Positions 16,542-56,460 of a stretch of 64,000 nucleotides of DNA are shown here, one piece after another (position 1 is the first letter of the stretch; each line of letters starts with the position of its first letter). The notes beneath the pieces were generated by a model. That model saw only the letters and a program-made list of their open reading frames with translations, made no database searches and was not told where the DNA came from. A program made the position numbers and the translations under genes. Source of the stretch: an uncultured Candidatus Saccharibacteria bacterium (lineage in GTDB: Bacteria; Patescibacteriota; Minisyncoccia; UBA6257; WO2-44-18); the NCBI GenBank assembly GCA_964348885.1, contig CAYGEK010000001.1, forward strand, positions 10,255 to 74,254. Direction: 5' to 3'.

Positions 16542-17705
16542 CTATAAATCACTTAAAAGTCTGCGTGTTTCTTCCTTGTAACGATCCACGCCCGGATTAT
16601 CAAACGGATTAACTCCCATCAGCTTACCGAGATACATCATCTCCATCATCTTTACTTGAAGCAAAGCGCCGAGAGTTTCCTCGGATATGTCCGTGAGCTC
16701 CATGCTCATGAAGGGCAGGTTCTGCTCCCGGTAGGTAGTTTTCACCGCCGTCAGAATAGCCGCCATTATTCCGCCGAAGGTCTTTCCGGTAATATGCGGT
16801 ACGAGCTGGTCGATATTCTCCTTGGATCGCACGACGAAATCGCGGCCGTGGTCAGCCACGGAAACAAACGTGGTGAACTTATCCTTCGGCCCGTCCAGAT
16901 AAAGCTGGGCGACCGAATGCAGATCGGTTGTGCCGACGGAAACGGTCGGAGTGATTCCTTTGCCCATCTTGCCCACGCTCTCGCCAGTCAGTTGGCGGTA
17001 CCACTTCCCCACTCCTTCCAGATCCGGTTCAAAGAAAAACGAATCGTGAATCAGCTTCCCGTCTTTCCAATTCTTCCAGATAGCGAGCGCCGATTGAGCC
17101 GCCGGGTTTTGAGAGACATCGTACGAAAGGCAGGCTGCCGTAATCTCCTTCGCTCCCTTTAGTAAAAGATCTGTTTTAACGCCGGCCAACGCCAGCGGGA
17201 CAAGGCCGACCGGAGTAAATACGGAATAACGACCTCCGATTTCTTTCGGCGTAGCAATCGCGTCAAAGCCGTTGGCCTCCGCCCATTTCCACAATTTTGA
17301 TCCGCCGTCGGTAATGACGATTACCTGATCATCTTTTTTCCTGTTGGCCAACAAAACCGCGGCGTTCGCGGCAGTTTCGGTGGTAGTGCCGGACTTCGAG
17401 ACAATCAGGATGGTCGCGGGGTGGTCTATTTTATCCAAAATTCTTTCCAAGCGCCGGGCGTCCAACGTCTCCGCGAAATAAATCTTTTTCTTCGGACGCA
17501 AGGCCTGATAAATCGCCAGAGCGCCCAAATTGGAGCCGCCCACGCCAACAACAACAATACTCCCCTTGTTCTTTTTCTTGGGTAAAACTACCGGGGCATC
17601 AAAGGAACGGACGAACGGCGCCGGATTTTCCCGCTGGCGCTTAATAAAGTCAATCAGCTCTTGAGGGGCCTGTGTGGATGAACCGAAATCAAATCGTAAT
17701 CCCAT
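16542..17705 (-). CDS. pgi: Glucose-6-phosphate isomerase (short SIS-domain type)
   Basis: 387 aa; SIS motifs (VSKSGTTTE, GGRYS). Confidence 0.8.
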   Translation of the reverse strand: MGLRFDFGSSTQAPQELIDFIKRQRENPAPFVRSFDAPVVLPKKKNKGSIVVVGVGGSNLGALAIYQALRPKKKIYFAETLDARRLERILDKIDHPATILIVSKSGTTTETAANAAVLLANRKKDDQVIVITDGGSKLWKWAEANGFDAIATPKEIGGRYSVFTPVGLVPLALAGVKTDLLLKGAKEITAACLSYDVSQNPAAQSALAIWKNWKDGKLIHDSFFFEPDLEGVGKWYRQLTGESVGKMGKGITPTVSVGTTDLHSVAQLYLDGPKDKFTTFVSVADHGRDFVVRSKENIDQLVPHITGKTFGGIMAAILTAVKTTYREQNLPFMSMELTDISEETLGALLQVKMMEMMYLGKLMGVNPFDNPGVDRYKEETRRLLSDL

Positions 17706-17725
17706 TATGTTATTATTGTATCATG

Positions 17726-18460
17726 CCTATAAAAAAGCCTAAGAAAACCCCTCAGCAGATTTCAAAAGAAAAATTACTCGTCCCCTCCAAGGATCTACCG
17801 GTTGCTCCGCACCCTCACGATTGGCGACACTCATTTCATTGGCGCGTTTTCCGAATTATGGCGGAGTTCGTGGACGGTTTTCAATTTCTGGCCGATATCA
17901 AGCGTAGCGTAACCTTCTTCGGCTCGGCGCGCTTCCCGGAGACGAACAAGTGGTACAAAGCCGCCCAGGATTTGGGCGCTCTGCTGGCGAAATACGGCTA
18001 CAGCGTCATCACCGGAGGTGGCCCTGGAATCATGGAAGGCGGTAACCGAGGCGCCACAGAAGGCGGCGGCGAATCTATCGGCATCAACATTCAATTGCCG
18101 TTTGAACAACGTATTAACCCTTATGTTAAAAAGGGCCGCGGCTTCTATTATTTCTTCACTAGAAAAGTAATGTTGTCCTTCGCCTCCCAGGCCTATGTTT
18201 ATTTTCCCGGAGGCTACGGCACCTTGGACGAGCTATTTGAAATTCTTACACTGGTTCAAACTAAAAAGATTCACGATAAAATCCCGATTATTCTTTACGG
18301 AAAAGAATTCTGGGGCGACCTGGATAACTGGATGCGAGCAAAACTTCTCGGCGAGCATGAAACGATAGATAAAGCCGATCTGAATCTATACCATATTGTG
18401 GACAGTCCAGAGGAGGCCTACGAGATTATCGGAAAATCTACTCCGCGCGAAGAGTTCTAA
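17726..18460 (+). CDS. LOG-family (TIGR00730) Rossmann-fold nucleotide-binding protein
   Basis: GGGPGIMEG and PGGYGTLDE motifs. Start moved downstream of the overlap with pgi. Confidence 0.8.
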   Translation, partial: PIKKPKKTPQQISKEKLLVPSKDLPVAPHPHDWRHSFHWRVFRIMAEFVDGFQFLADIKRSVTFFGSARFPETNKWYKAAQDLGALLAKYGYSVITGGGPGIMEGGNRGATEGGGESIGINIQLPFEQRINPYVKKGRGFYYFFTRKVMLSFASQAYVYFPGGYGTLDELFEILTLVQTKKIHDKIPIILYGKEFWGDLDNWMRAKLLGEHETIDKADLNLYHIVDSPEEAYEIIGKSTPREEF

Positions 18461-18496: not shown

Positions 18497-19066
18497 TTAT
18501 GCTCTGATTGCTTTCAAAAGCTTTGAAACCAGCTTTTTCGGGAATCCCTGCACGCTGTCCATCTCGCCCTCCATCTTCTCGATGTAGGGAGAGATTAGCG
18601 GACTTTCGCAGGTAAAACCGCCGGCGCATTGCATCACGTCGCCTTCATCGACCAGCGCGTCAATGACGTGGGCTGGCAACGGCTTGAAGAACACTTTGGC
18701 AATCGCCACGTCCGCCAGCAGATAGCGGCGAATGGAGTTATAAACAACAATCGCGCTGTAAGTGACGGAGGGATGCAGATGAGCGGACTCAAGGAACTGG
18801 TGCGCCTCGGCGAAATTGACCGGCTTGTGCCGGAACTTGCCGTTGACGGTGACAATCTGATCGGCCGTCAGCAGAATATACGGCCCGCCAAAACGCTCTT
18901 GGAGCTTTTTGCTTTTGGCTATCGCCCGAAGCATCGCCAGCACATCGGGCCGATTATCCAGGATTTCCCCCTCATCAATGTTGGCGGCGACAGCTTCAAA
19001 ACTGTAGCCCATGTCGGCAAACAACTGACGCCGCCACTTTGATTCCGAACCGAGAATCAACCTCAT
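18497..19066 (-). CDS. maf: Maf-like nucleoside triphosphate pyrophosphatase
   Basis: 189 aa; N-terminal LILGSESKWRRQL and conserved Maf core. Confidence 0.75.
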   Translation of the reverse strand: MRLILGSESKWRRQLFADMGYSFEAVAANIDEGEILDNRPDVLAMLRAIAKSKKLQERFGGPYILLTADQIVTVNGKFRHKPVNFAEAHQFLESAHLHPSVTYSAIVVYNSIRRYLLADVAIAKVFFKPLPAHVIDALVDEGDVMQCAGGFTCESPLISPYIEKMEGEMDSVQGFPKKLVSKLLKAIRA

Positions 19067-19138: not shown

Positions 19139-20245
19139 TTACTTCTTTTCTTCCCTGGTCGCCGAGCCGTAACCGGCCGACTCCTTATATCGCTTATCGG
19201 CAGTCTCGCCGCCAATCGCCCGATCCAGCTCCTGCCAGATCTTGGCGCCGCTCATCGCCTGCGCGTCGCCAACCGGATGATTCCGTTGACGATCGTGCAG
19301 ATTCCAAAGGGCCGCCGCGCCGACACGGGCCATTTCGTCAAAACCGTTCCAGACCGCCTCCATCGCGATGCGCGACTGCAAGGTCGTGTGCCAGATCAGT
19401 CTGAAGCCATTCCCCTTATCGTAAAGATCGTCATAGGTCGGCGGCTCTTTCTTGAACTTGGCCCGATAAGCCACCGTCCAATCCTTATTCGGAGAATAGT
19501 TGATACCAAGAATCATTTTCGGATCGTGACGGCGCATTTCCGAAACCCAGCGCTCGATCACGGCCGGATCCTGCATCGCGTCCGCCCAAAGCACCAGCGG
19601 ACGCAGGCCGTGATACTCAACATCCATGTAGCGCTTGCCGCGCTCAATGGCGTTTTCCAATCCCCCGTTCGCCGCCGTCAAAGCATCGGTGCGAACCATC
19701 AGCCGCATGGAAGTCCCGAGGGCTTCCGAAGCCATCAGCCAGCAACGAATCTTCGCTTCCATATCCTCGATGTCCACGCAGGACTTGCCGCCCAGATTGC
19801 CGCACCGGCGGGTCGCCTGATCCTCCAGATGAGCCAGGCCGACACCCATCTCATGATAGGCCCGGACCGTCTCACTGATCACGACCGGCTCAAGCGCAAA
19901 CCCCGTCTCGGCATCCACGATAGTCGGAAGCGGAAAAGCTTCGGCTACCGCGTGTCGCGCGAGCATGGTCATGCGCGTCAGATCATGGAAAGCCATGTCC
20001 GGTCGCCGCCAGGCCATCGCGCTGATGGACCAGCCGCCGATATAAACGGCGTTAAAGGCGCAGGGATTCTGGCTGTTAGCCGTCCGCTGGCGGTAGATTT
20101 CTTTGGCGATATAAGCGCCCATAGCGTCATAAACGCCCGGCGCGATAATCAAACCCTCGTCATTCAGCGTCTTGACGAACGCGTCACCCGGACGCTCATG
20201 CCGCCGAAAAATCTCCCGCATACCCGATTCGTTCTCCGGATTCAT
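19139..20245 (-). CDS. aceA: Isocitrate lyase family protein (ICL/PEP-mutase superfamily); signature reads RRCGN instead of KKCGH
   Basis: Aligns with ICL over AVYIGGW, IVDAETGF, HLEDQ...RRCGNLGGKS, VRTDAL. Own -10/RBS upstream. GC3 is roughly 65%, above background. Confidence 0.75.
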   Translation of the reverse strand: MNPENESGMREIFRRHERPGDAFVKTLNDEGLIIAPGVYDAMGAYIAKEIYRQRTANSQNPCAFNAVYIGGWSISAMAWRRPDMAFHDLTRMTMLARHAVAEAFPLPTIVDAETGFALEPVVISETVRAYHEMGVGLAHLEDQATRRCGNLGGKSCVDIEDMEAKIRCWLMASEALGTSMRLMVRTDALTAANGGLENAIERGKRYMDVEYHGLRPLVLWADAMQDPAVIERWVSEMRRHDPKMILGINYSPNKDWTVAYRAKFKKEPPTYDDLYDKGNGFRLIWHTTLQSRIAMEAVWNGFDEMARVGAAALWNLHDRQRNHPVGDAQAMSGAKIWQELDRAIGGETADKRYKESAGYGSATREEKK

Positions 20246-20341: not shown

Positions 20342-21970
20342 TTACTCCGCGTTTTCCGTTTCCTGGAGCAGAAGCTCCGAGTAGCCGGGAATGGTCAGAA
20401 ATTCCTCAAATTCTTCGGCGGTGATCATCTGCATGAACAACTCTTCCGCGTCTTCGTAATAGTCATCCAGAGCGGGGTCGTTGAAAGCCGCTTCTCTGAC
20501 GCGAGTCAGGTGTTTCGTAATCAGATCCAAGGTCACGGTGAAGCCATCGGCGGTCACCGCGCCATGTTTCAGCCACTGCCACAGCTGGGAGCGCGAAATC
20601 TCGGCGGTCGCCGCATCCTCCATCAGATTCTGCAGCGCCACGGCTCCGGTTCCCCGAAGCCAGTGCCACAGATAACGGATGCCGACCTCCAAATTCTTAC
20701 GGATTCCTTCCTGTGTGATCGTTCCCTGAATCGGCGCCAGCAGTGCCTCGGCTTTCGGAAAATCATCCGAGCGCGCATCCTCAATCTGATTCTTGCTCTT
20801 CATCCCGAGGTCAAAGATCTCTTTGGCCATCGGTACGAAGGCGGGATGCGCGACCCAGGTGCCGTCATGACCGGCTTTCACTTCCCTGGCCTTATCGGCT
20901 TTGAATTTCAGCTGGGCCTCGGTATTGGCCCGGATACTCTCCTTGTCGGTTCCTTTGATTGGAAGCTGAGCGGCCATTCCGCCCATCGCATGAGCGCCAT
21001 GCTTGTGACAGGTGCTGATCAGCAACTTCACATACTCGGCAAGGAACCCTTTGTCCATCGTCAGCTGTCCGCGATCCGGCAGGACAAAACGTTCATCATG
21101 CCGCAGCCGCTTGATGTAGCTGAAAATATAATCCCAGCGCCCGCAATTCAAGCCGGCGGAATATTCCCTCAGCTCGTACAAGATCTCTGACATCTGAAAA
21201 GCGGCAGGCAGAGTCTCGATCAAAGCCGTGGCCTTGATTTCTCCGGGTAGAAGGCCGAGCTTGTCGGAAGCGTACTTGAAGACTTCAGTCCAAAGACGCG
21301 CTTCTTCTCGGCTTTCCATCTTGGGCAAATAGAAATACGGACCATCTCTGCGCTTACGAAGCTCCATCGCGTTGTGAAAAATGTAGAGGCCGAAGTCGAA
21401 CAGACTGGCCGAAACGGCTTCACCGCTCACCGCCAGATGATTTTCCTCCAGATGCCAGCCGCGGGGCCGGAAAAAGAGGACGGCCGTCTGCGCGTTCAGG
21501 GCGTAGGTCTTCTTTTTTTCCTCGTCGGTATAAAGCAGATCCTTACGAATCGCCTGATAAAGATTGATCTGGCCGCTGACGATGTTTCTCCAGGTCGGAG
21601 ATTCGGAATCTTCGGCATCGGCCATGAAGACATTGGCACCTGAATTCATCGCGTTGATGACCATCTTCGCGCTGCTCGCCGGACCAGTGATCTCCACGCG
21701 CCGATCCAGAAGATGATCCGGCACCGGCCAGATCTTCCAGTTGCTACTGCGAATCTCTTTTGCGTCGGGCAGAAAGTCCGGCAGAATGCCGGCGCGGATT
21801 TTCTGCTGAGCGAGTTTTCGCGCCTCCAACACCTCCATGCGCTTCCGATTGAAGCGGCTATGAAGATCGGCGACAAAGCTGACAGCTTCGGGAGTCAGAA
21901 TGACATCCGCCGCCTCATCCAGGCCGTGCTCATTGAGCAGTTTCCGACCGAGCAGATGGATATACTGCAT
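20342..21970 (-). CDS. aceB: Malate synthase A
   Basis: 542 aa; overall match to the malate synthase A family; GGAGG RBS; terminator hairpin immediately 3'. Confidence 0.9.
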   Translation of the reverse strand: MQYIHLLGRKLLNEHGLDEAADVILTPEAVSFVADLHSRFNRKRMEVLEARKLAQQKIRAGILPDFLPDAKEIRSSNWKIWPVPDHLLDRRVEITGPASSAKMVINAMNSGANVFMADAEDSESPTWRNIVSGQINLYQAIRKDLLYTDEEKKKTYALNAQTAVLFFRPRGWHLEENHLAVSGEAVSASLFDFGLYIFHNAMELRKRRDGPYFYLPKMESREEARLWTEVFKYASDKLGLLPGEIKATALIETLPAAFQMSEILYELREYSAGLNCGRWDYIFSYIKRLRHDERFVLPDRGQLTMDKGFLAEYVKLLISTCHKHGAHAMGGMAAQLPIKGTDKESIRANTEAQLKFKADKAREVKAGHDGTWVAHPAFVPMAKEIFDLGMKSKNQIEDARSDDFPKAEALLAPIQGTITQEGIRKNLEVGIRYLWHWLRGTGAVALQNLMEDAATAEISRSQLWQWLKHGAVTADGFTVTLDLITKHLTRVREAAFNDPALDDYYEDAEELFMQMITAEEFEEFLTIPGYSELLLQETENAE

Positions 21971-22055: not shown

Positions 22056-24317
22056 TTACATGGTCAGATCGCAGACACCGGCGACGCACGCGAGTTCGCG
22101 GGCGCCCTTGGTCTCGTCTTCCTTTTCATAGATCAGGATTCGGGAGAAATCCACCGGAGGCATTTCGGCCACCATCTTTTCGTACTGCTCTTTGGTAATC
22201 TCCTCGTAAGGCGGGAGTTCGTACACGTGCTCATCTTCCTCTAGGGGCATAAAAGACAAGCCGCCGATCACATCCCAGTTCTTATGAACCCAGGCGACAA
22301 CCTCTATCCATTCATTCTTGCCAACAGAGATCGTTGCCGAAGGATTGTGCTCGGTGTAGTTCTCTTTGAGCATCTTCCAATATTCCAGCTGATCGATCGC
22401 CAGCATGTCGTTCCGGAATTTAGAATCGGACGGGCCTTTCACCGGAAAGGACAGGACAAAATTCGTGGCCTTTTCCTCAGGCAAGCCGCCGTCAGGCAAC
22501 ATTGGGACCTTCTGATCCTTCAACATCTTGAACATGGAATCAGTGGCGGCGATGCGCACGCGACGGATATAGTATTCCGCATGCCGCGTATGAAGGCCGG
22601 AAGCGGAATCCACAAGTTGGGAAACGGTGCCGGACGGCTTCACGCAGGTGATCGCCGTAGATTCGTTGATGCCAAATCGCTCGGCATAGGTCTTGTTAAC
22701 CCGAATCGCCCGATCCCTCATCTTCCTCAGCGTCTCCGCTTTTCTCACCGCCGGGCAGTCCCACTGACCGGTGATGGAAACGCCCAACAGGCGCTCCTCC
22801 TCGCAATTCTTCCGCCATTCCTTGGAGAGATAGGGGAAATTTGTAAGGGTAGCCTGGTAAGTGCCGATGATGGTCGCGACGCGGACCTTCCGAAGAAGCG
22901 AAGCCTCGTCGTCATCCGATCGCGCGACCACCTCGGTCAGATTGCAGAACTGCTTGGATTTCAGCACGATCTCACCGCACGGATTGGTGCCGCAGAACTC
23001 CAGGTCGCGGGAAAGAATTTCCCGCCGGCGTTCCGGAACCTGAGCCAACAGGCTGGCGCGGTTAAAGATTCCGCGCTCGCCCGATCCGCTCTTCGCGAGC
23101 GAAATCCATTCGTCCAAAAACTCAATCGTCGTCGGCTTTTCCATATAAGCGACAGAGTTGTTCGCCATATGGCGCTGAGCGTGATCCTTGCTGAAGTCTC
23201 CGAACTTCGCCATCCGCATGCGATAGTCGTCCAGATCGGAAAGCGAGATCAGCGCGCTGCGCCGGACGCCTCCCATCTCCACGATCTCGCCGATCTTGCA
23301 GATTATGTCGTGAACATCAAGAGTGGTGAGTCGCCGACCCTGGCGCTTCAGAATCTTCTTTCTCGCGAATTTCATCAGATCCATCAGCGGCTTCGGGCCG
23401 GAACTTCTTCCACCCATCACCCGGAGACGCGCGCCGGCCGGACGAAGCTTGGAGTAGTCAAAATCAATATCTTCACCGGCGTACCAGGTTTCCAGGCCCT
23501 TCAGAAGCGCGTCTCCCCATCCTTCCTTACTGTCATGGACGGTGTGGGTTTTACGCTTATGACCGATCTGTCGCTTGATCATCGGCAACATGCCAACATT
23601 CTGCTCCTCAACCGAGAAGCCGACACCGGTGCCGCACATGGAAAGATACATGATCTCGGCGAAATCCTGGAGTTCCTTGGGAGCGATGAACGAGCAGTTA
23701 TAGGCGCAGACGTTAGTCTGCATAGCCGCCTTGCCCGCGCTCCACATGAGCCGCATTGACGGCATGACTTCAAGCTTCAGGATGGCATCATGAACCTCGT
23801 CGTACTCTTTCGGCAAAAGCTTTTTGCCGAGAGTGTAACGCATGAAATCCACATACCGCTGAACAGCCTCTATCCAAGTCTCGCGGCGCTTCTCTTCTTC
23901 AATCCAACGCGAGTAGCTTCTGTAAAAAACAAATTCGGACATCGGACCACGGAAATGCTTTTGACTTTCCTCAACGAGCTTTTTTACCCGTTCCGGAATA
24001 GCGTTCTCCTGCTCCCGTTTCTTTTCCCGGTCATACCGATAAAGAATGTAAGATTTCGCGGTTTTCATAAAGTCACTCAGGAGCAACGCTACCTGCACCG
24101 CGTCCTGAATTTCTTCAATGCCCGGATGGCTCTGTTTCTTATGCTTTTTGGAAATATTTTCCACGGCGGCTTCAGCCACAACTCTGGCTTTGGATTCATC
24201 ACCCTCGCCGACCGCCTGCATGGCCTTCCAGATCGCCTGAACAATCTTCTCCTGATCAAAATCAACCAAGGCGCCGTCACGCTTCTTCACTTTCGCGAAG
24301 ACCTGACTCTTGCTCAT
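22056..24317 (-). CDS. nrdJ: Class II (adenosylcobalamin-dependent) ribonucleotide reductase with N-terminal ATP-cone
   Basis: 753 aa; ATP-cone at the N-terminus, active-site NPCGEI and C-terminal CxxxxC pair (CVAGVC) as in monomeric RTPR-type enzymes; no glycyl-radical motif. Confidence 0.75.
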   Translation of the reverse strand: MSKSQVFAKVKKRDGALVDFDQEKIVQAIWKAMQAVGEGDESKARVVAEAAVENISKKHKKQSHPGIEEIQDAVQVALLLSDFMKTAKSYILYRYDREKKREQENAIPERVKKLVEESQKHFRGPMSEFVFYRSYSRWIEEEKRRETWIEAVQRYVDFMRYTLGKKLLPKEYDEVHDAILKLEVMPSMRLMWSAGKAAMQTNVCAYNCSFIAPKELQDFAEIMYLSMCGTGVGFSVEEQNVGMLPMIKRQIGHKRKTHTVHDSKEGWGDALLKGLETWYAGEDIDFDYSKLRPAGARLRVMGGRSSGPKPLMDLMKFARKKILKRQGRRLTTLDVHDIICKIGEIVEMGGVRRSALISLSDLDDYRMRMAKFGDFSKDHAQRHMANNSVAYMEKPTTIEFLDEWISLAKSGSGERGIFNRASLLAQVPERRREILSRDLEFCGTNPCGEIVLKSKQFCNLTEVVARSDDDEASLLRKVRVATIIGTYQATLTNFPYLSKEWRKNCEEERLLGVSITGQWDCPAVRKAETLRKMRDRAIRVNKTYAERFGINESTAITCVKPSGTVSQLVDSASGLHTRHAEYYIRRVRIAATDSMFKMLKDQKVPMLPDGGLPEEKATNFVLSFPVKGPSDSKFRNDMLAIDQLEYWKMLKENYTEHNPSATISVGKNEWIEVVAWVHKNWDVIGGLSFMPLEEDEHVYELPPYEEITKEQYEKMVAEMPPVDFSRILIYEKEDETKGARELACVAGVCDLTM

Positions 24318-49098: not shown

Positions 49099-49221
49099 GA
49101 TCCCGTTAGAAAAGACCGGAATATGAATACCACAATAATCACTGCAGCAATCACATTAAAAGTACGCCGTTGTCGGACGGCCGAATTACGGTCGTCAGAG
49201 ACGACCTTTTTCTAACGGGAT
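49099..49221 (+). promoter_or_regulatory. Structured 5' leader of thrS with a 14-bp long-range helix
   Basis: atcccgttagaaaa (49100..49113) is perfectly complementary to ttttctaacgggat (49208..49221), enclosing internal hairpins (gccgt...acggc; gtcgtc-aga-gacgac). No T-box consensus recognised. Confidence 0.4.
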
Positions 49222-49249
49222 GGAAGAGCAAAAAAAGGAGCAGCCGAAA

Positions 49250-50452
49250 ATGCGGGATCACCGCGAAATTGGACAGATATTGGACCTGTTTTCATTTCAG
49301 GAAATAGCTCCGGGAGCGCCGTTCTGGCACAACAACGGAATGATCATTTTCAAAGAACTGGAGAAATACCTCCGGGAAACGTTGGATAAAGAGGGCTACC
49401 AGGAGATCTCCACGCCAATCATGGTGAAAAAGGACGTGTTCGAAAAATCCGGACACTGGGAGCATTACCGCGAGAATATGTTTTATTTTAATAATCCGCG
49501 CGATGAAAAGGAGCATATGGTCATTAAGCCGATGAACTGCCCCGAGTCCACCTACGTGTATAATTCCGCCATCCGGAGTTATAAAGAACTTCCGCTACGT
49601 CTCGCCGAGATAGGCCGCCTGCACCGTAATGAGCTGTCCGGCACGCTCGGCGGCATGTTCCGAGTCCGTCAGATAACAATGGACGATGCTCACATCTACG
49701 CCCTTCCAAATCAGGTAAAAAAGGAAGTGGTAAATTTTATGGCGATGCTGGATGGTTTTTACGCCATGTTCAATCTGAAGGCGACTTATATTCTGGCTAC
49801 GCGTCCGGAAAAAGCTCTGGGCTCCGTTGAAGATTGGGCGAAAGCGGAAAAATCTCTAACCGAAGCCTTACAAAAAGCCGGTAAAGAATTCACTGTCGCC
49901 AAAGGCGAAGGCGCTTTTTACGGCCCGAAGATCGAGGTTCATCTAAGCGATTCACTCGGACGCGACTGGCAATTAGGCACCGCACAGCTGGATCTCGTGA
50001 TGTTGCCAAAGCAGTTCGAGACCTATTACATCGCCGAGGATGGCTCCAAAAAGTTGCCCTGGGTAATCCATCGAGCGATTTTCGGCTCATTCGAAAGATT
50101 TATCGGCATGCTTTTGGAGCACACGGACGGACACTTGCCGACCTGGCTCTCCCCCGTTCAGGTGGAAGTGATGAGTATCGGCGAAGGCCACATGAAGTAC
50201 GCCGCGCAGATTGCGAAAAAACTGCAGAAAAAAGGCGTCCGAGTTAAGCTGAACACCGCCAACGAAAGTATTGGAAAGAAGATTCGCGAAGCCGAGATTC
50301 ACCGCGTGCCATTTATAGTTGTAACCGGAGATAAAGAAGTAGCCGCCGGTACGGCCAGCGTTCGTCACTGGAAGGACAAGGCCAATCAGGTAATGACCGT
50401 AGCGGAACTGGTTAAAAAAGTTACTAAGGAAATTAAAGAAAAAGCCTACTAG
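49250..50452 (+). CDS. thrS: Threonyl-tRNA synthetase, catalytic plus anticodon-binding domains only (no N-terminal TGS/editing domains)
   Basis: Begins at the class II core (MRDHREIGQILDLF...), with motifs 2 and 3 and a C-terminal anticodon-binding domain. AAGGAG RBS before this ATG; an alternative in-frame ATG at 49220 lies inside the leader helix. Confidence 0.85.
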   Translation: MRDHREIGQILDLFSFQEIAPGAPFWHNNGMIIFKELEKYLRETLDKEGYQEISTPIMVKKDVFEKSGHWEHYRENMFYFNNPRDEKEHMVIKPMNCPESTYVYNSAIRSYKELPLRLAEIGRLHRNELSGTLGGMFRVRQITMDDAHIYALPNQVKKEVVNFMAMLDGFYAMFNLKATYILATRPEKALGSVEDWAKAEKSLTEALQKAGKEFTVAKGEGAFYGPKIEVHLSDSLGRDWQLGTAQLDLVMLPKQFETYYIAEDGSKKLPWVIHRAIFGSFERFIGMLLEHTDGHLPTWLSPVQVEVMSIGEGHMKYAAQIAKKLQKKGVRVKLNTANESIGKKIREAEIHRVPFIVVTGDKEVAAGTASVRHWKDKANQVMTVAELVKKVTKEIKEKAY

Positions 50453-50470: not shown

Positions 50471-50923
50471 TTACTCGTCTTTCATTATCGTCTCTATCAG
50501 GCGGTTGTTTACGCAGAAATCCACGCCAACCAGCTTCTTTTTCTTGTCGCCGGCCAGCAAGAAATCAAAGTGCCAACTCTCTCGCTTCGTCAGAACCCGC
50601 CAGCTGCCGTCAACCAGAACGGCGACAATCCAGTTCTCCTGGTCGCCGAGTAATCCCCAGAGCTTTACCAAAGCCTGACCGCTGAAAACACGGATAATCT
50701 CACCGCCGACCAGGCCGTTTTCATGCTCATAGCAATAGCTCTTAGCGAAAAGGTATTCTTCCAATTTTCGCTGTATGGCCCGATCATGTGATGTAACGGA
50801 GCTATCAAGCCGGACGTAGACAATGTCTCGCGTGGCGGGATCAAGATAATGCTCCATCGCATACTCATGGAACCACTCGTCACCGCCGAAATCCGGCGGA
50901 GGCGGCAGCTTTCTTCCGGACAT
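50471..50923 (-). CDS. Hypothetical protein
   Basis: 150 aa; no recognised motif. Confidence 0.45.
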   Translation of the reverse strand: MSGRKLPPPPDFGGDEWFHEYAMEHYLDPATRDIVYVRLDSSVTSHDRAIQRKLEEYLFAKSYCYEHENGLVGGEIIRVFSGQALVKLWGLLGDQENWIVAVLVDGSWRVLTKRESWHFDFLLAGDKKKKLVGVDFCVNNRLIETIMKDE

Positions 50924-52416: not shown

Positions 52417-52596
52417 ATGAGCGCTGACGTGTGTTTCTGGTGCGGAAACGTGAAATGTATGTGCAATCATCTTTTCCTTCCTTATCCTGTCGAACACCAC
52501 ATAACTATGTCCCGGCCAACTCCCAGCCATAAAGCCTTCATAAAACGCGTGTTCGCGAGATTGGAGAAGAAGATGGAAAAGGAGGCGCGCGCGTGA
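52417..52596 (+). CDS. Small Cys-rich protein (hypothetical), translationally coupled to the downstream kinase
   Basis: 59 aa from an ATG with AAAGGAG RBS (MSADVCFWCGNVKCMCNH...); its stop overlaps the GTG start of the next gene. Confidence 0.4.
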   Translation: MSADVCFWCGNVKCMCNHLFLPYPVEHHITMSRPTPSHKAFIKRVFARLEKKMEKEARA

Positions 52597-53141
52597 TAAT
52601 TAGAATCAGCGGAAATCAGGGCTCCGGGAAGACTACGATGGCCCGGAGGTTGGCTGAAAAGCTCGGCTGGCAGTTCTCCTATACGGGAGGCATCTTCCGC
52701 GAGATGGCCCGAGAGGCGGGCCTTGCGATAGAAGAGTTCTACGCCAAAATGAAAGCCGATCCGGAGTTGGAGAAATCCATTGATCGGAAGCAGGAAGCGC
52801 TTATGATGGCCGAAGACAACCTGGTCGTCGACGGGCGGCTCGCCGCCTTTCAGAATACCGTGTTCCCTGCTTTCAATATCTTTCTGAAAGTAGGCCGCCT
52901 GGAAGGCGCCCGTAGGCAGAAGCTCCGTTCGGAAAACCGGCATCGCGAACTGGAAGAAGTCGCGGCCTCGACGGACGAGCGGATGGCTAACGAGCGGGCA
53001 CGCTATAAGGATCTTTACGGCATAGAAGATCACATGGACGAATCGCGGTTCGATTACGTCCTGGATACGACCGAACTTGATGAAGACGCCGTATTCCAGA
53101 GCTGCCTCAGAGCCGTCATGGCAAAAATTAACCCCTTGTAA
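52593..53141 (+). CDS. P-loop nucleoside-monophosphate kinase, cytidylate-kinase-like family
   Basis: Walker A GNQGSGKTT; 182 aa; resembles archaeal-type CMP kinase / AAA-like small kinases. Confidence 0.6.
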   Translation: MIIRISGNQGSGKTTMARRLAEKLGWQFSYTGGIFREMAREAGLAIEEFYAKMKADPELEKSIDRKQEALMMAEDNLVVDGRLAAFQNTVFPAFNIFLKVGRLEGARRQKLRSENRHRELEEVAASTDERMANERARYKDLYGIEDHMDESRFDYVLDTTELDEDAVFQSCLRAVMAKINPL

Positions 53142-53152
53142 AAGGGGTTTTA

Positions 53153-53608
53153 TTATATAAGAAATTTGATTAGCGCCTCGGGTGTAGGCACGAAGTCGTC
53201 GACATATTCGTTAGCAACGGGCTCTTCATACATTTCGTTCGGATAACGGCCGACCATAATCGGCTTTTCAAGAGCGTAGACGATCTTGTCCCGCTCCGCG
53301 GCCGCGACCAGCTCGCCGAACGTGTTGTAACCGATGTAGCGGTTCTTATTAAAGATGAAGCAGACCTGCGCCTTCCGTATCAGGCGATTATGCCGAAGAA
53401 TACTGCCGGCTACGGTGCGTCGATAAGCTTCATGCTTCATGCGCTCCGACTCCGTAAGACTCATCAGCTCCGGCAAAGGATCTCTCTCAAAATGCGGATG
53501 AAAAATCGTGATTGACTGCTCGGGCGGAGTCAGAGCCCGTAAGCGGTCCATGAACTCCAGGAGCTCTTTGGCGAAGCGCTGGCTAGCGCAAAAGATAACC
53601 GATTTCAT
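53153..53608 (-). CDS. Nucleoside 2-deoxyribosyltransferase-like (Rossmann / SLOG-type) protein, paralog 1
   Basis: N-terminal VIFCASQRF and a downstream GYNTFGELVAAAERDKIVYAL segment, resembling the NDT family N-terminal motif and its catalytic-Glu region. Confidence 0.5.
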   Translation of the reverse strand: MKSVIFCASQRFAKELLEFMDRLRALTPPEQSITIFHPHFERDPLPELMSLTESERMKHEAYRRTVAGSILRHNRLIRKAQVCFIFNKNRYIGYNTFGELVAAAERDKIVYALEKPIMVGRYPNEMYEEPVANEYVDDFVPTPEALIKFLI

Positions 53609-53695
53609 TTAGCCTCCTATCAAAAAACTGCTATCGCTTATTATATCGCTTCTGGCGGAAATAAAAAATCGCCCGTTTGCAGACGGGCGATTATT

Positions 53696-54169
53696 TTATC
53701 GTTTAGCGACAAATGTCAGATCGGATAGGAGCGTGTCCTTGTCCCGGCGGAAGAAAAGCATTCTGACCGCCACTACCTTTTTGGATTCGGCCGCTGTGCC
53801 AAATTCAACTTTGAAGGAGACTCGGTAACTGGCGATGGAAAAGACCTCCCATTTCCCGTCCGAGCGCAGAACCGAGAAGTTGCTGAATGTAGGCTTCTCG
53901 TCCTTCATCCCCCAGCATTTGAATCTTGGCTCCTGGTCGAAAAGGCGGTAATTCCAGCCGACACCGAGGCTGTCTTTTTCAAAAGCCTCTACCTTACCGG
54001 CCCACAACGGCATCCTGATATCCGAAGCCTCCGGCTTTGGATAATACATTTCGTTATTTTTCTCCGGCCTGATAAAAATAGAAAGTATCTGCGTAGGAGT
54101 CCAGGTTGAGAAGTCCGGCGGCTTTGCGGATTCCTTAATCAGCGACTCGTCGCTCATTGGCGGCCTCAC
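53696..54169 (-). CDS. Hypothetical protein
   Basis: 157 aa; flanked on both sides by rho-independent terminators. Confidence 0.45.
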   Translation of the reverse strand: MRPPMSDESLIKESAKPPDFSTWTPTQILSIFIRPEKNNEMYYPKPEASDIRMPLWAGKVEAFEKDSLGVGWNYRLFDQEPRFKCWGMKDEKPTFSNFSVLRSDGKWEVFSIASYRVSFKVEFGTAAESKKVVAVRMLFFRRDKDTLLSDLTFVAKR

Positions 54170-54244
54170 AATTCTTATGTAACGTTTCTATCTGCCACTA
54201 TAGAAAAAAACCCCCTGTTTGTACAGGGGGTTTATAGATTCAGG

Positions 54245-54751
54245 TCAGGCGCCGAGCCAGGCCTTGAGCCACCTTTCCCAGAGAAACTCTAGGTCTTCGA
54301 GGGGATCTTTGCCCGGATATGCCAAGGTAAAAACACGCTTCCGGTCTTTTTCGTGCGCGACCGTCATCATCCACTTTTCATTATGAGGCTTGAGAAAAAT
54401 GGTTGGGAGCTTCAAGCCGCCAGCCCAACCAACCTCACCCTGGGTGTTACTTCCTACGTAGCCGGTTTCTTTCTTTTGCCGCCCCTTGCTGAGTGGGTTA
54501 AAGATGAGACAAATACCGCACAAGCTCTTGACCAAGTCCAGGTTGTTGAAATGCGCCCAAACGAGCCCGGGTACCTTATCCCGATAAGATTCGGACTCAA
54601 GGCGCTCCTCTTCGTCCTTCCTGATGTGATCAGTACGATGTCTCTTGAAATCGGGGTAAAAAACCAGCACACCTTTCTTTTCCAAGAAAGCGACAAAAGT
54701 TTCAAGCTCAGGCTTGAAACGCTGAGTGCAGCAAATCACGAGAGGTCTCAT
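54245..54751 (-). CDS. Nucleoside 2-deoxyribosyltransferase-like protein, paralog 2
   Basis: LVICCTQRF ... LIFNPLSKG...GYVGSNTQGEVGWAGG; same architecture as 53153..53608. Confidence 0.5.
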   Translation of the reverse strand: MRPLVICCTQRFKPELETFVAFLEKKGVLVFYPDFKRHRTDHIRKDEEERLESESYRDKVPGLVWAHFNNLDLVKSLCGICLIFNPLSKGRQKKETGYVGSNTQGEVGWAGGLKLPTIFLKPHNEKWMMTVAHEKDRKRVFTLAYPGKDPLEDLEFLWERWLKAWLGA

Positions 54752-54799
54752 AAGCCTCCTCCTTTAAATGTACCAGACCAATCTAAAGAAAAAGCCCCA

Positions 54800-55462
54800 C
54801 TATTGCAAGAGGGGCTTAACAATCCCGTAAATTCTTTCCTGGATGACTTCCGGAGCCAGAATCTCGCCTTCCGGAGCGCACTGGATGACAGCATGGTCAT
54901 CAGGATACTGACCGGCGAGCCAAAGATACGAATCGGCCGCGCGCGCCAGATGCAACGAGTCGGCCTCGTGACCGTCCTTGCCGCGCTTCCGACCGGCCAT
55001 CAATTTCAGCGTCACTTCTATTGGCGCGTACAACAGAACAACCAGGTCTGGCCTGGGAACTTTCAAAACTTCATATTCAAAATCGTAGAGCCAGTGAAGA
55101 AAACTTTGCCTATCCATTTCATCAGCAATCTTACCGCCCTGATGCCCGGCGTTGGAATCCACATAGCGGTCCAGGATAACGTCATGGCCTTGGTCCAAGG
55201 CCGCGTTAATTCTCCTAGCGGCGTCAAAGCGGTCCACGGCGTAAAAAACCGAGGCAATCTTGGGATCAAGCTTGTCCGCCTCGCCGTAAACGCCGGCCAG
55301 GTAGTTCTCCACCAATCCCGCCGATTTTTGGCCGTACTGCGGGAAAGAAGTCGTAAAGATGCATCGCCCATCTCTCCGCAAACGCTCTACCAAAAGACCG
55401 GTTTGCGTTTTTTTGCCGGTGCCGTCAGTACCTTCAATAACAATCAATTTTCCTCGCTTCAT
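54800..55462 (-). CDS. tmk: Thymidylate kinase
   Basis: P-loop IEGTDGTGKKTQ, DRY-like motif DRYVDS, lid region. Start moved to MKRGKLIV. Confidence 0.9.
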   Translation of the reverse strand: MKRGKLIVIEGTDGTGKKTQTGLLVERLRRDGRCIFTTSFPQYGQKSAGLVENYLAGVYGEADKLDPKIASVFYAVDRFDAARRINAALDQGHDVILDRYVDSNAGHQGGKIADEMDRQSFLHWLYDFEYEVLKVPRPDLVVLLYAPIEVTLKLMAGRKRGKDGHEADSLHLARAADSYLWLAGQYPDDHAVIQCAPEGEILAPEVIQERIYGIVKPLLQ

Positions 55463-55530
55463 AGCCTTATTATCCTCCGAAAAGAACTTCCCGCAAAGTA
55501 TCACATGCCGAAAAAAATAAAAAGCGCCCT

Positions 55531-56148
55531 TTATAGGGGCGCCGTTTTCAATTTACCGACAGGAGCATCTTGGAATCGCCAGTCGAAGAGACCGGCGGAG
55601 CGGAGCAGATAGTACCAGACCGGCTCCATGCCCGGATTATTTTCCCAGGAAGCGTAGGCGGCCTTTTCCTCATCCGTGACCGGCCCCGTCTTGGGATGAC
55701 CAAAAATCTTCAGGGTGATTTCGCCGACCTCAAACCACTGAAGTCCGAGTCTGGAAATCGCGAACTCCGTTCTCACGGCGTAATACCGCCACATCTCTTC
55801 ATCGGCCCAGAACGCGCGCTTCGCGTCATCTCCAGCCTTGAAGGCTAGGTGCGGAAGATTCGCGGCGGAAACCAGATAGGTGCGCCAGGCGTGGAACAAC
55901 CCGCCTTCCCGCTTACACGGATTGCTCAAGGTCCCTTCCGAGGCCAGCCTCAACTTGTCACTCGGAATGGTCAGGCCAACTTCTTCACGAACTTCAGTGA
56001 TGGCCATCTCCGGATAATCACCGCCGTCCAGATGGCCGGCCGGGAAAGCCTTGCACCGGGGATAATTGCCCCGGTCAATCATGAGCAAGCGCCGCCGCTT
56101 GTCCATAATTACAACTCCCACGCTTTTGTTGTCGCAGGTCTTACTCAA
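55531..56148 (-). CDS. NUDIX hydrolase
   Basis: Nudix box AGHLDGGDYPEMAITEVREEVGL. Confidence 0.8.
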   Translation of the reverse strand: MSKTCDNKSVGVVIMDKRRRLLMIDRGNYPRCKAFPAGHLDGGDYPEMAITEVREEVGLTIPSDKLRLASEGTLSNPCKREGGLFHAWRTYLVSAANLPHLAFKAGDDAKRAFWADEEMWRYYAVRTEFAISRLGLQWFEVGEITLKIFGHPKTGPVTDEEKAAYASWENNPGMEPVWYYLLRSAGLFDWRFQDAPVGKLKTAPL

Positions 56149-56169: not shown

Positions 56170-56460
56170 CTAGACCGGAACCACAATCTTGCGGAAACCG
56201 CTCTTGCCGTCCGAGCGTGAAACGCGCGGCCTGAATCCACGCCTTTGGCAGTAGTCAAATACTACGGCCGAGATACCTGCCAGCGAACCACCGAAGCCGA
56301 ACGGGCCTCGGACAAAATCGGAGGGCGGGATACTCATTACTTCCAACTCCCGCGCGCCCGATCGCTTTGCCAGATTCACCCGTTCCGCCAATCCTTCAAC
56401 CAAAGACGAGAACGCGGAAGCGCGCCGGTCGGACAAAGAATCGCCCACGAGCCCCTCCAC
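56170..56460 (-). CDS. Hypothetical protein
   Basis: 96-aa ORF, no motif; weak. Confidence 0.3.
   Translation of the reverse strand: MEGLVGDSLSDRRASAFSSLVEGLAERVNLAKRSGARELEVMSIPPSDFVRGPFGFGGSLAGISAVVFDYCQRRGFRPRVSRSDGKSGFRKIVVPV

Follow-up and report, generated by a model that had tools for sequence, protein, structure and literature searches.

RESULTS

A cluster of nucleotide-metabolism genes in a Saccharibacteria contig

We analyzed a cluster of predicted nucleotide-metabolism genes in DNA from an uncultured Candidatus Saccharibacteria bacterium (NCBI GenBank assembly GCA_964348885.1, contig CAYGEK010000001.1). The cluster lies at positions 52417 to 56148 of the stretch that we examined, which is 64,000 nucleotides long and is referred to here as the window. 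An initial annotation, made from the sequence without database searches, had described a small Cys-rich open reading frame (ORF), a CMP-kinase-like gene, two genes for proteins resembling nucleoside 2'-deoxyribosyltransferases (NDTs), a hypothetical gene between these two, a thymidylate kinase (Tmk) gene, and a NUDIX hydrolase gene. Our ORF map contained all of these ORFs at the coordinates that they had been given (Table 1), and matches to PF13189, PF02223, and PF00293 confirmed the identities of the two kinases and the NUDIX protein. The NDT-like proteins, A and B, are the main subject of this work. Housekeeping genes border the cluster: gyrB-secE-nusG-rplK lies to one side and gatB-thrS-dnaE to the other.

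Table 1. Features of the cluster in the window and fused or related genes at other loci (L numbers)
Feature	Position	Strand	Remarks
Cys-rich ORF, 59 aa (C-x2-C-x4-C-x-C)	52417-52596	+	No family match; doubtful gene
P-loop nucleoside monophosphate (NMP) kinase, archaeal-type (d)CMP-kinase-like, 182 aa	52593-53141	+	PF13189 Cytidylate_kin2, 3.4e-14; convergent with A
Bidirectional terminator-like hairpin, kinase/A junction	53130-53149	both	8-bp stem, 4 GC pairs
Paralog A ("A-type"), 151 aa, predicted nucleophile Glu99	53153-53608	-	Predicted divergent NDT/DNPH1 superfamily
Terminator-like hairpin 3' of hypothetical gene	53667-53692	-	10- to 11-bp stem, 6 GC pairs, then T-run
Hypothetical protein between B and A, 153 aa	53696-54157	-	No family or PDB match; lineage-specific
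Terminator-like hairpin 3' of B	54208-54233	-	11-bp stem, 6 GC pairs, then TTTTTT
Paralog B ("B-type"), 168 aa, predicted nucleophile Glu106	54245-54751	-	Predicted divergent NDT/DNPH1 superfamily
Thymidylate kinase (Tmk), 220 aa	54800-55462	-	PF02223, 2e-21
Terminator-like hairpin 3' of NUDIX	55523-55543		Hairpin scan
NUDIX hydrolase, 205 aa, TTG start	55531-56148	-	PF00293, 35.4 bits (cut-off, 21.1)
AAA_17::NDT fusion	L019:3524-4561	-	Also L023, L024, L026, L032-L034, L037-L041, L068
~250-aa NDT-like protein	L018:4175-4936, L021:4107-4865, relatives	+	Motifs IYLLGS, SGGSAFEL
Guanylate-kinase fusion, 308-312 aa	L005:7579-8505, L001:6570-7508, L014:537-1475	-	C-terminal guanylate-kinase domain

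The CMP-kinase-like protein scored 53.8 bits against PF13189 (cut-off, 28) and 100.7 bits against TIGR02173, the archaeal-type (d)CMP kinase model, just under its cut-off of 102.1. Tmk scored 76.9 bits against PF02223 (cut-off, 27) and carries the motifs GTDGTGKKT and LDRYVDS, as expected for a thymidylate kinase; two NCBIfam dTMP kinase models gave 116.8 and 76.5 bits, both under their cut-offs. The NUDIX box reads G-HLDGG-D...TEVREEVGL, with the three glutamates of the REUxEE motif kept, R replaced by T, and a shift of one residue. We favor the long NUDIX start because the N-terminal motif CDxKS.G is conserved.

Placement of A and B in the NDT/DNPH1 superfamily

A and B are 29% identical over 147 amino acids (BLASTP E value, 9e-14), which indicates that they are true paralogs, as initially proposed. 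Neither matched any Pfam or NCBIfam model, PF05014 included, even at an E value of ≤1, and searches of the PDB with single sequences and with clade profiles returned only noise (TNIP1, PvuII, and myosin). An exhaustive hidden Markov model (HMM) search with a profile of A and B together yielded 110 cluster representatives. Among 74 aligned, more distant homologs, 44 matched PF05014 (Nuc_deoxyrib_tr), the best with an E value of 1.2e-9. A profile of this wider family matched NDTs in the PDB (6evs, with an E value of 1.4e-3, 8pqp, and others) and, by score, the CMP N-glycosidase 4jen (5.5e-3). In the profile alignment, the invariant Glu of A and B was in register with the catalytic Glu of 6evs and 8pqp.

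Predicted structures gave the same placement. For A, an AlphaFold2 (AF2) model was computed from 112 sequences, with a predicted local distance difference test (pLDDT) score of 92.9. In a Foldseek search of the PDB it had 16 matches with an E value of ≤1e-3, and nearly all of the top 35 belonged to the NDT superfamily, at a probability of 1.00. The matches included CtNDT, DpNDT, BpNDT, human DNPH1, YtoQ, MilB, TbNDT, LhPDT, LlNDT, and a designed phosphodeoxyribosyltransferase; the best were the nucleoside-acting CtNDT, DpNDT, and BpNDT, with E values of 2e-4 to 1e-3. For the AF2 model of B (pLDDT, 86.4), the top PDB match was the NDT 8qc0 (probability, 0.99; E value, 0.025) and the top viral match was an N-deoxyribosyltransferase (E value, 6e-4). 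Three independent lines (transitive profile search, comparison of profiles with the PDB, and predicted structures) thus place A and B in the NDT/DNPH1 superfamily, with a predicted Flavodoxin/Rossmann-like α/β fold. The superfamily label of the initial annotation, although invisible to Pfam, NCBIfam, and direct sequence searches of the PDB, is borne out by the transitive profiles and the structural models; assignment by family profile, which that annotation had put forward as a check, succeeded for the 44 homologs and failed for A and B themselves.

The family is large. With an E value of ≤1e-5, a profile search recovered members of both paralog types in at least 331 clusters (90% identity). 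Among the matches listed, almost all were A-type proteins of ~152 amino acids that had no name or were labeled "hypothetical"; sources, where named, were Parcubacteria or Patescibacteria. Some members of the wider family bear the automatic name "nucleoside 2-deoxyribosyltransferase." Between A and its ortholog at locus L077, the ratio of nonsynonymous to synonymous substitution rates (dN/dS) was ~0.07; for B compared with its counterpart at L012, dN was 0.10 and dS was saturated. These low values argue that A and B are functional and under strong purifying selection.

Conserved residues and a predicted altered active site

The catalytic triad of the NDT superfamily consists of Tyr, Asp or Asn, and Glu. 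Dozens of positions are ≥95% identical across 117 A-type sequences; near-invariant residues, all of them retained in A of the window, are C7, S9, Q10, R11, F12, P38, F40, E53, R56, Y62, H73, R75, N87, Y91, G93, N95, T96, G98, and E99. Invariant in B are C7, Q10, R11, F12, P33, E47, R50, H67, N85, Y98, G100, N102, T103, and E106. The predicted nucleophile Glu is kept in 116 of the 117 A-type sequences (E99) and in all B-type sequences (E106), which answers the initial annotation's suggestion to check for it. It lies at the N terminus of the helix after strand 4 and aligns with the Glu region of MilB and with E93 of Rcl. In BpNDT, the residue aligned with the invariant P33 and P38 is the Pro that follows strand 2.

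Other active-site positions are altered. At the position of NDT Tyr7 in strand 1, B and the A-type consensus (115 of 117 sequences) have Val5, and A of the window has Ile5; the Tyr that marks an NDT is therefore missing. The Asp that contacts the 5'-OH in NDTs, six residues before Glu (DDTGTAWE in BpNDT), is replaced by an invariant Gly (G93 in A, G100 in B, and 74 of 74 sequences in the wider family). Together with Thr at the third position before Glu, this Gly gives A and B a LOG-like spacing (G-x-N-T-x-G-E), with PF03641, the LOG model, unmatched. At the position of Rcl Ser87 the family has Tyr or Gly, Asp69 falls next to an invariant His in an ambiguous register, and Ser117' is not mappable. 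In hhalign comparisons, residues 3 to 12 of A (SVIFCASQRF) paired weakly with residues 11 to 20 of rat Rcl (SVYFCGSIRG; the query sequence is that of PDB entry 2khz, 100% identical), as did the ICGS consensus, placing R11 opposite R19; the FC-x-S-x-R pattern is retained, and the Tyr and GG of Rcl are not.

These substitutions can be read against what is known of substrate contacts. In the transferases, Asp and Asn bind the 5'-OH, whereas members acting on monophosphates have small uncharged residues instead (PMC12884076). The phosphate ligands of DNPH1 are Ser87, Ser117', and the backbone of Ile18, Arg19, Gly20, and Gly89 (PMC3834327), and LOG holds the phosphate of AMP with the Gly and Thr of PGGxGTxxE (PMC4979012). 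Phe in place of Tyr has been linked to ribo-substrates in MilB and AvNRT (PMC7308715). Because the Tyr that excludes the 2'-OH is replaced by Val in A and B, ribonucleotides may be accepted besides deoxyribonucleotides.

A of the window departs from the A-type consensus at ~11 near-invariant positions. Decay of A was ruled out as the cause: the L077 ortholog, 77% identical, has the same unusual residues, at the low dN/dS given above.

With two of the three triad residues replaced (Tyr by Val, and His at the Asp/Asn position), the chemistry of A and B could differ from that of known members or be lost. A and/or B might thus be noncatalytic, SLOG-like nucleotide-binding sensors or scaffold subunits for the kinases or NUDIX protein. 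The divergence of A of the window, its dispensability in close relatives, and the fusion of NDT-like domains to kinases in relatives (see below) would all suit such a role. Yet the near-universal retention of the nucleophile Glu, the invariance of the G-x-N-T-x-G-E loop, and the very low dN/dS are typical of an enzyme active site, and we consider a noncatalytic function quite improbable. Taken together, the profile and structural comparisons identify A and B as a widespread, unannotated family with a predicted altered active site within the known NDT/DNPH1 superfamily.

Conservation of the cluster across Patescibacteria

The initial annotation had allowed that these genes might prove scattered in other strains; instead, the cluster is syntenic in related genomes, which carry the labels Patescibacteria or Candidatus Saccharibacteria metagenome-assembled genomes. 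In the close relatives L005, L012, and L077, the order NUDIX, Tmk, B, (hypothetical gene), ..., kinase lies between rplK and gatB. More distant loci vary on this theme: L015 has B-type, NUDIX, and A-type genes; L018 has B-type, NUDIX, a gene for a 253-amino-acid protein, and A-type; L019 (Nealsonbacteria) has genes for L11, dCMP deaminase, Tmk, ThyX, a 345-amino-acid kinase::NDT fusion, NUDIX, A-type, and GatB; L020 (Niyogibacteria) has L11, NUDIX, and A-type; and L001 has L11, dCMP deaminase, and B-type, followed by a guanylate-kinase fusion. The kinase found beside A in the window also occurs, on the opposite strand, beside the A-type gene at L025, L028, L030, L042, and L077. The window NUDIX protein is 32 to 45% identical to those encoded at L005, L018, L019, and L020, and these similarities identify it as the ortholog of a NUDIX protein whose gene adjoins NDT-like genes throughout the Candidate Phyla Radiation (CPR; Patescibacteria).

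A profile search of genome contigs with one family alignment gave 4 loci. A scan of metagenomes gave 56, whose genes we identified with HMMs made from the reference set. At 24 of these loci the sequence extended 3 kb or more upstream of the A-type gene, and counts were made on these, within 3.5 kb on that side: there was a NUDIX gene at 22 of the 24 loci, a P-loop nucleotide kinase gene (Tmk, Cmk, or a kinase::NDT fusion) at 21, and a second gene of the NDT superfamily (B-type, kinase::NDT fusion, or 253-amino-acid type) at 16. A Tmk gene was present upstream of the A-type gene at 16 of 29 loci. Frequently, rplK/nusG lay upstream and gatB downstream of the A-type gene, often with genes for dCMP deaminase, Tmk, and ThyX. 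We concluded that the cluster is the local form of a nucleotide-metabolism island that is conserved across Patescibacteria and is situated between rplK and gatB. As judged from family matches, its core is a NUDIX hydrolase with one or more predicted divergent, unannotated proteins of the NDT/DNPH1 superfamily, flanked by P-loop NMP kinases.

Domain fusions extend these associations. Domains of the wider family are fused to NUDIX (P0058), to MazG (P0100), and to a DUF84 ITPase-like NTPase (P0104 and P0112). In Parcubacteria, a fusion of ~345 amino acids combines a P-loop kinase of the AAA_17 type with an NDT domain that is canonical and Rcl-like (PF05014, 30.8 bits), in which Tyr, Asp, and Glu are present and Ser stands six residues before Glu; this fusion often fills the B-type slot, and many Parcubacteria have it immediately upstream of the NUDIX and A-type genes. 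A third NDT-like paralog of ~250 amino acids, encoded between NUDIX and A-type genes, matched the A/B profile in hhalign with a probability of 77% and an E value of 1.9e-5. The guanylate-kinase fusion of relatives fills the slot of the window's CMP-kinase-like gene. We also considered its N-terminal ~110 amino acids as an NDT-like domain, but the matches (hhalign probability, 23%; DUF7768 E value, 0.012) were too weak and are not relied on.

NDT-like or SLOG domains and NUDIX domains recur in conflict systems, so the cluster could be imagined as an anti-phage system in which NUDIX and NDT-like effectors deplete or alter nucleotides. In PADLOC, the pVip-kinase model matched the CMP-kinase-like protein through its kinase domain (1.6e-21), a match that reflects the common nucleotide-kinase (CMP-kinase) fold. 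PADLOC found no further defense components in the cluster: there was no match for A or B, nor for the hypothetical protein or the Cys-rich ORF, and the NUDIX protein had one marginal match (PDC-S07; E value, 0.026). Among PHROGs, A matched none, B had a marginal match (E value, 0.085), and the NUDIX protein matched only generic NUDIX families. Moreover, the cluster occupies a fixed housekeeping site (NusG-L11 ... GatB-ThrRS) across many CPR lineages, together with genes for dTMP synthesis, unlike a variable island. On this genomic context and the PADLOC results we rejected a role in defense, which we regard as highly implausible.

Proposed action on nucleoside monophosphates

We favor, with about even confidence, the reading that A and B act on nucleoside 5'-monophosphates and cleave the N-glycosyl bond, by hydrolysis or by base exchange. 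A monophosphate substrate is suggested by the Rcl-like loop, the Gly six residues before Glu, the Val in place of Tyr, the fusions to NTPase-type domains, the canonical Rcl-like domain (with its Ser) of the AAA_17 fusions in sister clusters, and the neighbors; all of the latter act on or make nucleoside monophosphates. The content of the island (Tmk, Cmk, dCMP deaminase, and ThyX) leans toward pyrimidines and dTTP. DmtZ, an NDT-family enzyme that acts on dAMP and is found with a dNTPase, provides a precedent that backs the reading. The evidence does not separate hydrolysis (as in DNPH1 or MilB) from base exchange (as in DmtZ).

The proposed pathway would begin with the NUDIX hydrolase, which would generate a 5'-monophosphate from some nucleoside di- or triphosphate. 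This product would then be bound by A and B, which may form a hetero-oligomer; two loops, the N-terminal FC[AS]SQR and Gly-x-Asn-Thr, would hold its 5'-phosphate. In each protein the invariant Glu (E99 of A and E106 of B) would attack C1', and the base would leave, with the invariant His at the place of the catalytic Asp or Asn of other members. The resulting (deoxy)ribosyl-5-phosphate-enzyme intermediate could be resolved by water, in sanitation or trimming of the pool, or by another base, in exchange. The adjoining kinases would rephosphorylate wanted monophosphates. As a whole, the pathway would sanitize or rebalance the nucleotide pool of a scavenging cell, with surplus or unwanted (d)NTPs entering through the NUDIX hydrolase.

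Several points weigh against this proposal. The A/B branch is known from sequence and predicted structure alone, and its link to PF05014 is transitive, neither protein matching that model directly. An A/B-clade profile by itself finds no NDT in the PDB by sequence, and hhalign comparisons of the family profiles with Rcl were weak (probabilities of 37 to 71%; pairwise E values of 4e-5 to 4e-4). The fold search does not separate substrates, with nucleoside-acting NDTs at the top and DNPH1 and MilB lower. At or beside the position of Rcl Asp69 stands an invariant His (H73 of A and H67 of B), in an ambiguous register, and, as noted above, altered triad residues leave room for other chemistry or none. 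A is absent from the close relatives L012 and L005, so that the A/B pair is not obligatory. Each gene of the cluster is followed by its own terminator-like hairpin, which leaves cotranscription putative; the hairpin scan found 18 such sites, compared with 6.4 ± 3.0 in shuffled sequences. Finally, the AAA_17 kinase of the NDT fusions at other loci may phosphorylate nucleosides, in line with chemistry at the nucleoside level.

The last point bears on the module that the initial annotation preferred, in which A and B would be classical nucleoside 2'-deoxyribosyltransferases, like the NDT pair of lactobacilli (one enzyme purine specific, the other general), and the kinases would phosphorylate their products in deoxynucleoside salvage. 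The nucleoside-acting enzymes at the head of the Foldseek matches of A, the automatic NDT names in the wider family, and the reduced-genome precedent of Borrelia (PMC2764106) agree with this. So do the invariant P33 and P38, which may be equivalent to Pro57 of DmtZ, a residue conserved in transferases (PMC12884076). Against it, Val takes the place of the Tyr responsible for 2'-deoxy specificity, and an invariant Gly that of the 5'-OH-binding Asp. No nucleoside kinase or phosphorylase is recognizable in the window cluster, where the neighbors are NMP kinases and NUDIX (with dCMP deaminase in the island), and the NTP pyrophosphatases found in fusions yield monophosphates, not nucleosides. A gene for a class II ribonucleotide reductase (RNR) with an ATP-cone is also present in the window, at 22056-24317(-). 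The organism would thus make deoxynucleotides by reduction, so that deoxynucleoside salvage is not obligatory and a dependence like that of Borrelia is not expected. We consider classical NDT activity unlikely, and the lactobacillus-like pair and the salvage-dependent exchange of the initial annotation are not supported. Its alternative of Rcl-like or nucleotide-pool processing with NUDIX fits better, given the adjacency of NUDIX genes and the fusions to NUDIX, MazG, and DUF84. The window further encodes a LOG/SLOG-family protein (PF03641) at 17672-18460(+) and a Maf nucleotide pyrophosphatase at 18497-19066(-), which broaden its capacity for handling nucleotides.

In a more specific form of action on monophosphates, A and B, each by itself or both in a heteromer, would be housekeeping phospho(deoxy)ribosyltransferases that swap bases on 5'-monophosphates and thereby bypass nucleosides. 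The NUDIX hydrolase would supply the monophosphates, and adjacent or fused kinases would draw off the products. To our knowledge, phage DmtZ is the only natural enzyme reported to swap bases directly on monophosphates. We regard a housekeeping base swap as improbable; if it were true, members of the CPR without de novo synthesis could rebalance scavenged nucleotide pools by a new salvage route with a Val/His/Glu active site.

Whichever reaction A and B may catalyze, the family merits attention. The CPR comprises a large share of bacterial diversity, with tiny genomes that mostly lack the ability to make nucleotides. How these cells acquire, balance, and clean their nucleotides is poorly understood, and the reaction of A and B, once identified, would fill a gap in metabolic reconstructions. 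The family is among the most conserved small proteins of these genomes, and its genes keep a syntenic association with those for NUDIX, Tmk, dCMP deaminase, and ThyX. Enzymes of the NDT family are also sought as biocatalysts for nucleoside and nucleotide analogues.

Other ORFs in the cluster and window

The Cys-rich ORF has an AAGGAG Shine-Dalgarno sequence 7 nucleotides before its ATG, and its stop codon overlaps the GTG start of the kinase gene by 4 nucleotides. The ORF, initially described as translationally coupled to the kinase gene, is not conserved: tblastn found it only in 100%-identical strains (L008 to L010), and it is absent from the closest relative, L012. It had no family match in Pfam, NCBIfam, PADLOC, or PHROGs, and its status as a real gene is unproven.

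The 153-amino-acid hypothetical protein had no family or PDB match (Pfam, NCBIfam, PADLOC, and PHROGs). Hairpins follow both B and the hypothetical gene, in agreement with its earlier description as terminator insulated. It has orthologs in the same slot at L005, L012, and L077 and evolves faster than A (dN/dS, ~0.23). It is a distant paralog of a 150-amino-acid protein encoded at 50471-50923(-), downstream of gatB (BLASTP E value, 7e-5). Members of this ~150-residue family, to which 53696-54157 and 50471-50923 belong, share the pattern PPDF..W ... LWG ... DG.W and are found lineage-wide, with no Pfam or PDB match; in the relatives L005, L012, L001, L015, L050, and L077 their genes lie after gatB or beside NDT-like genes.

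An antisense ORF of 419 amino acids at 54353-55612(+), which spans B, Tmk, and NUDIX and is skipped by gene callers, is most likely a noncoding shadow ORF. Upstream of the NUDIX gene, an ORF of 92 amino acids at 56170-56448(-) has a counterpart at L012 with 44% identity, and gene calls in identical strains include it; it had no family match. In the flank, the threonyl-tRNA synthetase encoded at 49220-50452(+) has only 400 to 410 amino acids and lacks the tRNA_SAD domain found in the 581-amino-acid ortholog of L001. Elsewhere in the window, a gene of the phosphoenolpyruvate (PEP)-mutase/isocitrate-lyase family at 19139-20245(-) adjoins a malate synthase gene at 20342-21970(-). This pair resembles a glyoxylate shunt, which is unexpected in a member of the Patescibacteria.

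DISCUSSION

Comparison with known systems

Within the literature collection that was searched, no paper linked NDT-family proteins to the metabolism of Patescibacteria or the CPR. We compared A and B with characterized systems of related fold. LOG and PpnN (SLOG) have a related Rossmann-like fold, and the spacing of Gly, Thr, and Glu in A and B is that of their PGGxGTxxE motif (PMC4979012). A and B differ from them in having no PF03641 match, no PGG, and no catalytic Arg at the LOG position.

The NDT/PDT pair of Lactobacillus and BB0426 of Borrelia share with A and B the fold and covalent Glu chemistry (both predicted for A and B) and the presence of two paralogs per genome, and they serve salvage in organisms with reduced biosynthesis (PMC2764106). 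In contrast to these enzymes, A and B lack the triad Tyr and the 5'-OH-binding Asp, fall under the PF05014 threshold, and come from an organism with an RNR.

The CMP N-glycosidases MilB and BcmB act on ribonucleoside monophosphates and likewise have a residue other than Tyr, namely, Phe, next to the catalytic Glu. Around that Glu, NTQGEVGWAGG of B resembles GTHVEIGWASG of MilB, a direct similarity that is not significant (E value, 0.68). The wider-family profile matches 4jen, and the window cluster has a pyrimidine context (Cmk). MilB and BcmB differ in sitting in antibiotic biosynthesis clusters, and their base-specificity residues are not mappable onto A and B.

DNPH1/Rcl is similar in fold (human DNPH1, 8rpt, matched the A model with a probability of 1.00) and in the aligned Glu nucleophile. 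The loop FC[AS]SQR of A and B aligns, weakly, with FCGSIR of Rcl, which in DNPH1 binds phosphate through backbone NH groups (PMC3834327). Both also lack an Asp at the 5' pocket, and a monophosphate N-glycosidase downstream of NTP pyrophosphatases would be their shared logic. However, in A and B Tyr13 is replaced by Val, the place of Asp69 lies at or beside an invariant His, and Ser87 is replaced by Tyr or Gly. A and B also carry a helical insert of 20 to 25 residues with an invariant Glu and Arg, their C-terminal half differs, and intermediate profiles are needed to detect any sequence similarity to DNPH1.

DmtZ of Z-genome phages is an NDT-family dAMP hydrolase and deoxyribose-5-phosphate transferase (PMC12884076). 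A Foldseek viral match, a 161-amino-acid protein of phage Ghobes annotated as a deoxyuridine triphosphatase, may be that phage's NDT-like DmtZ, judging from its size and the phage. DmtZ differs from A and B in keeping the Tyr6/Asn77/Glu103 triad and in being a phage enzyme for a noncanonical base, whereas the A/B module is chromosomal, linked to housekeeping genes, and CPR-wide, and any transferase activity of A and B is putative. In both systems, a known or predicted monophosphate enzyme is encoded next to, or fused with, a (d)NTP pyrophosphatase, and small uncharged residues line the 5'-phosphate pocket (a predicted one in A and B).

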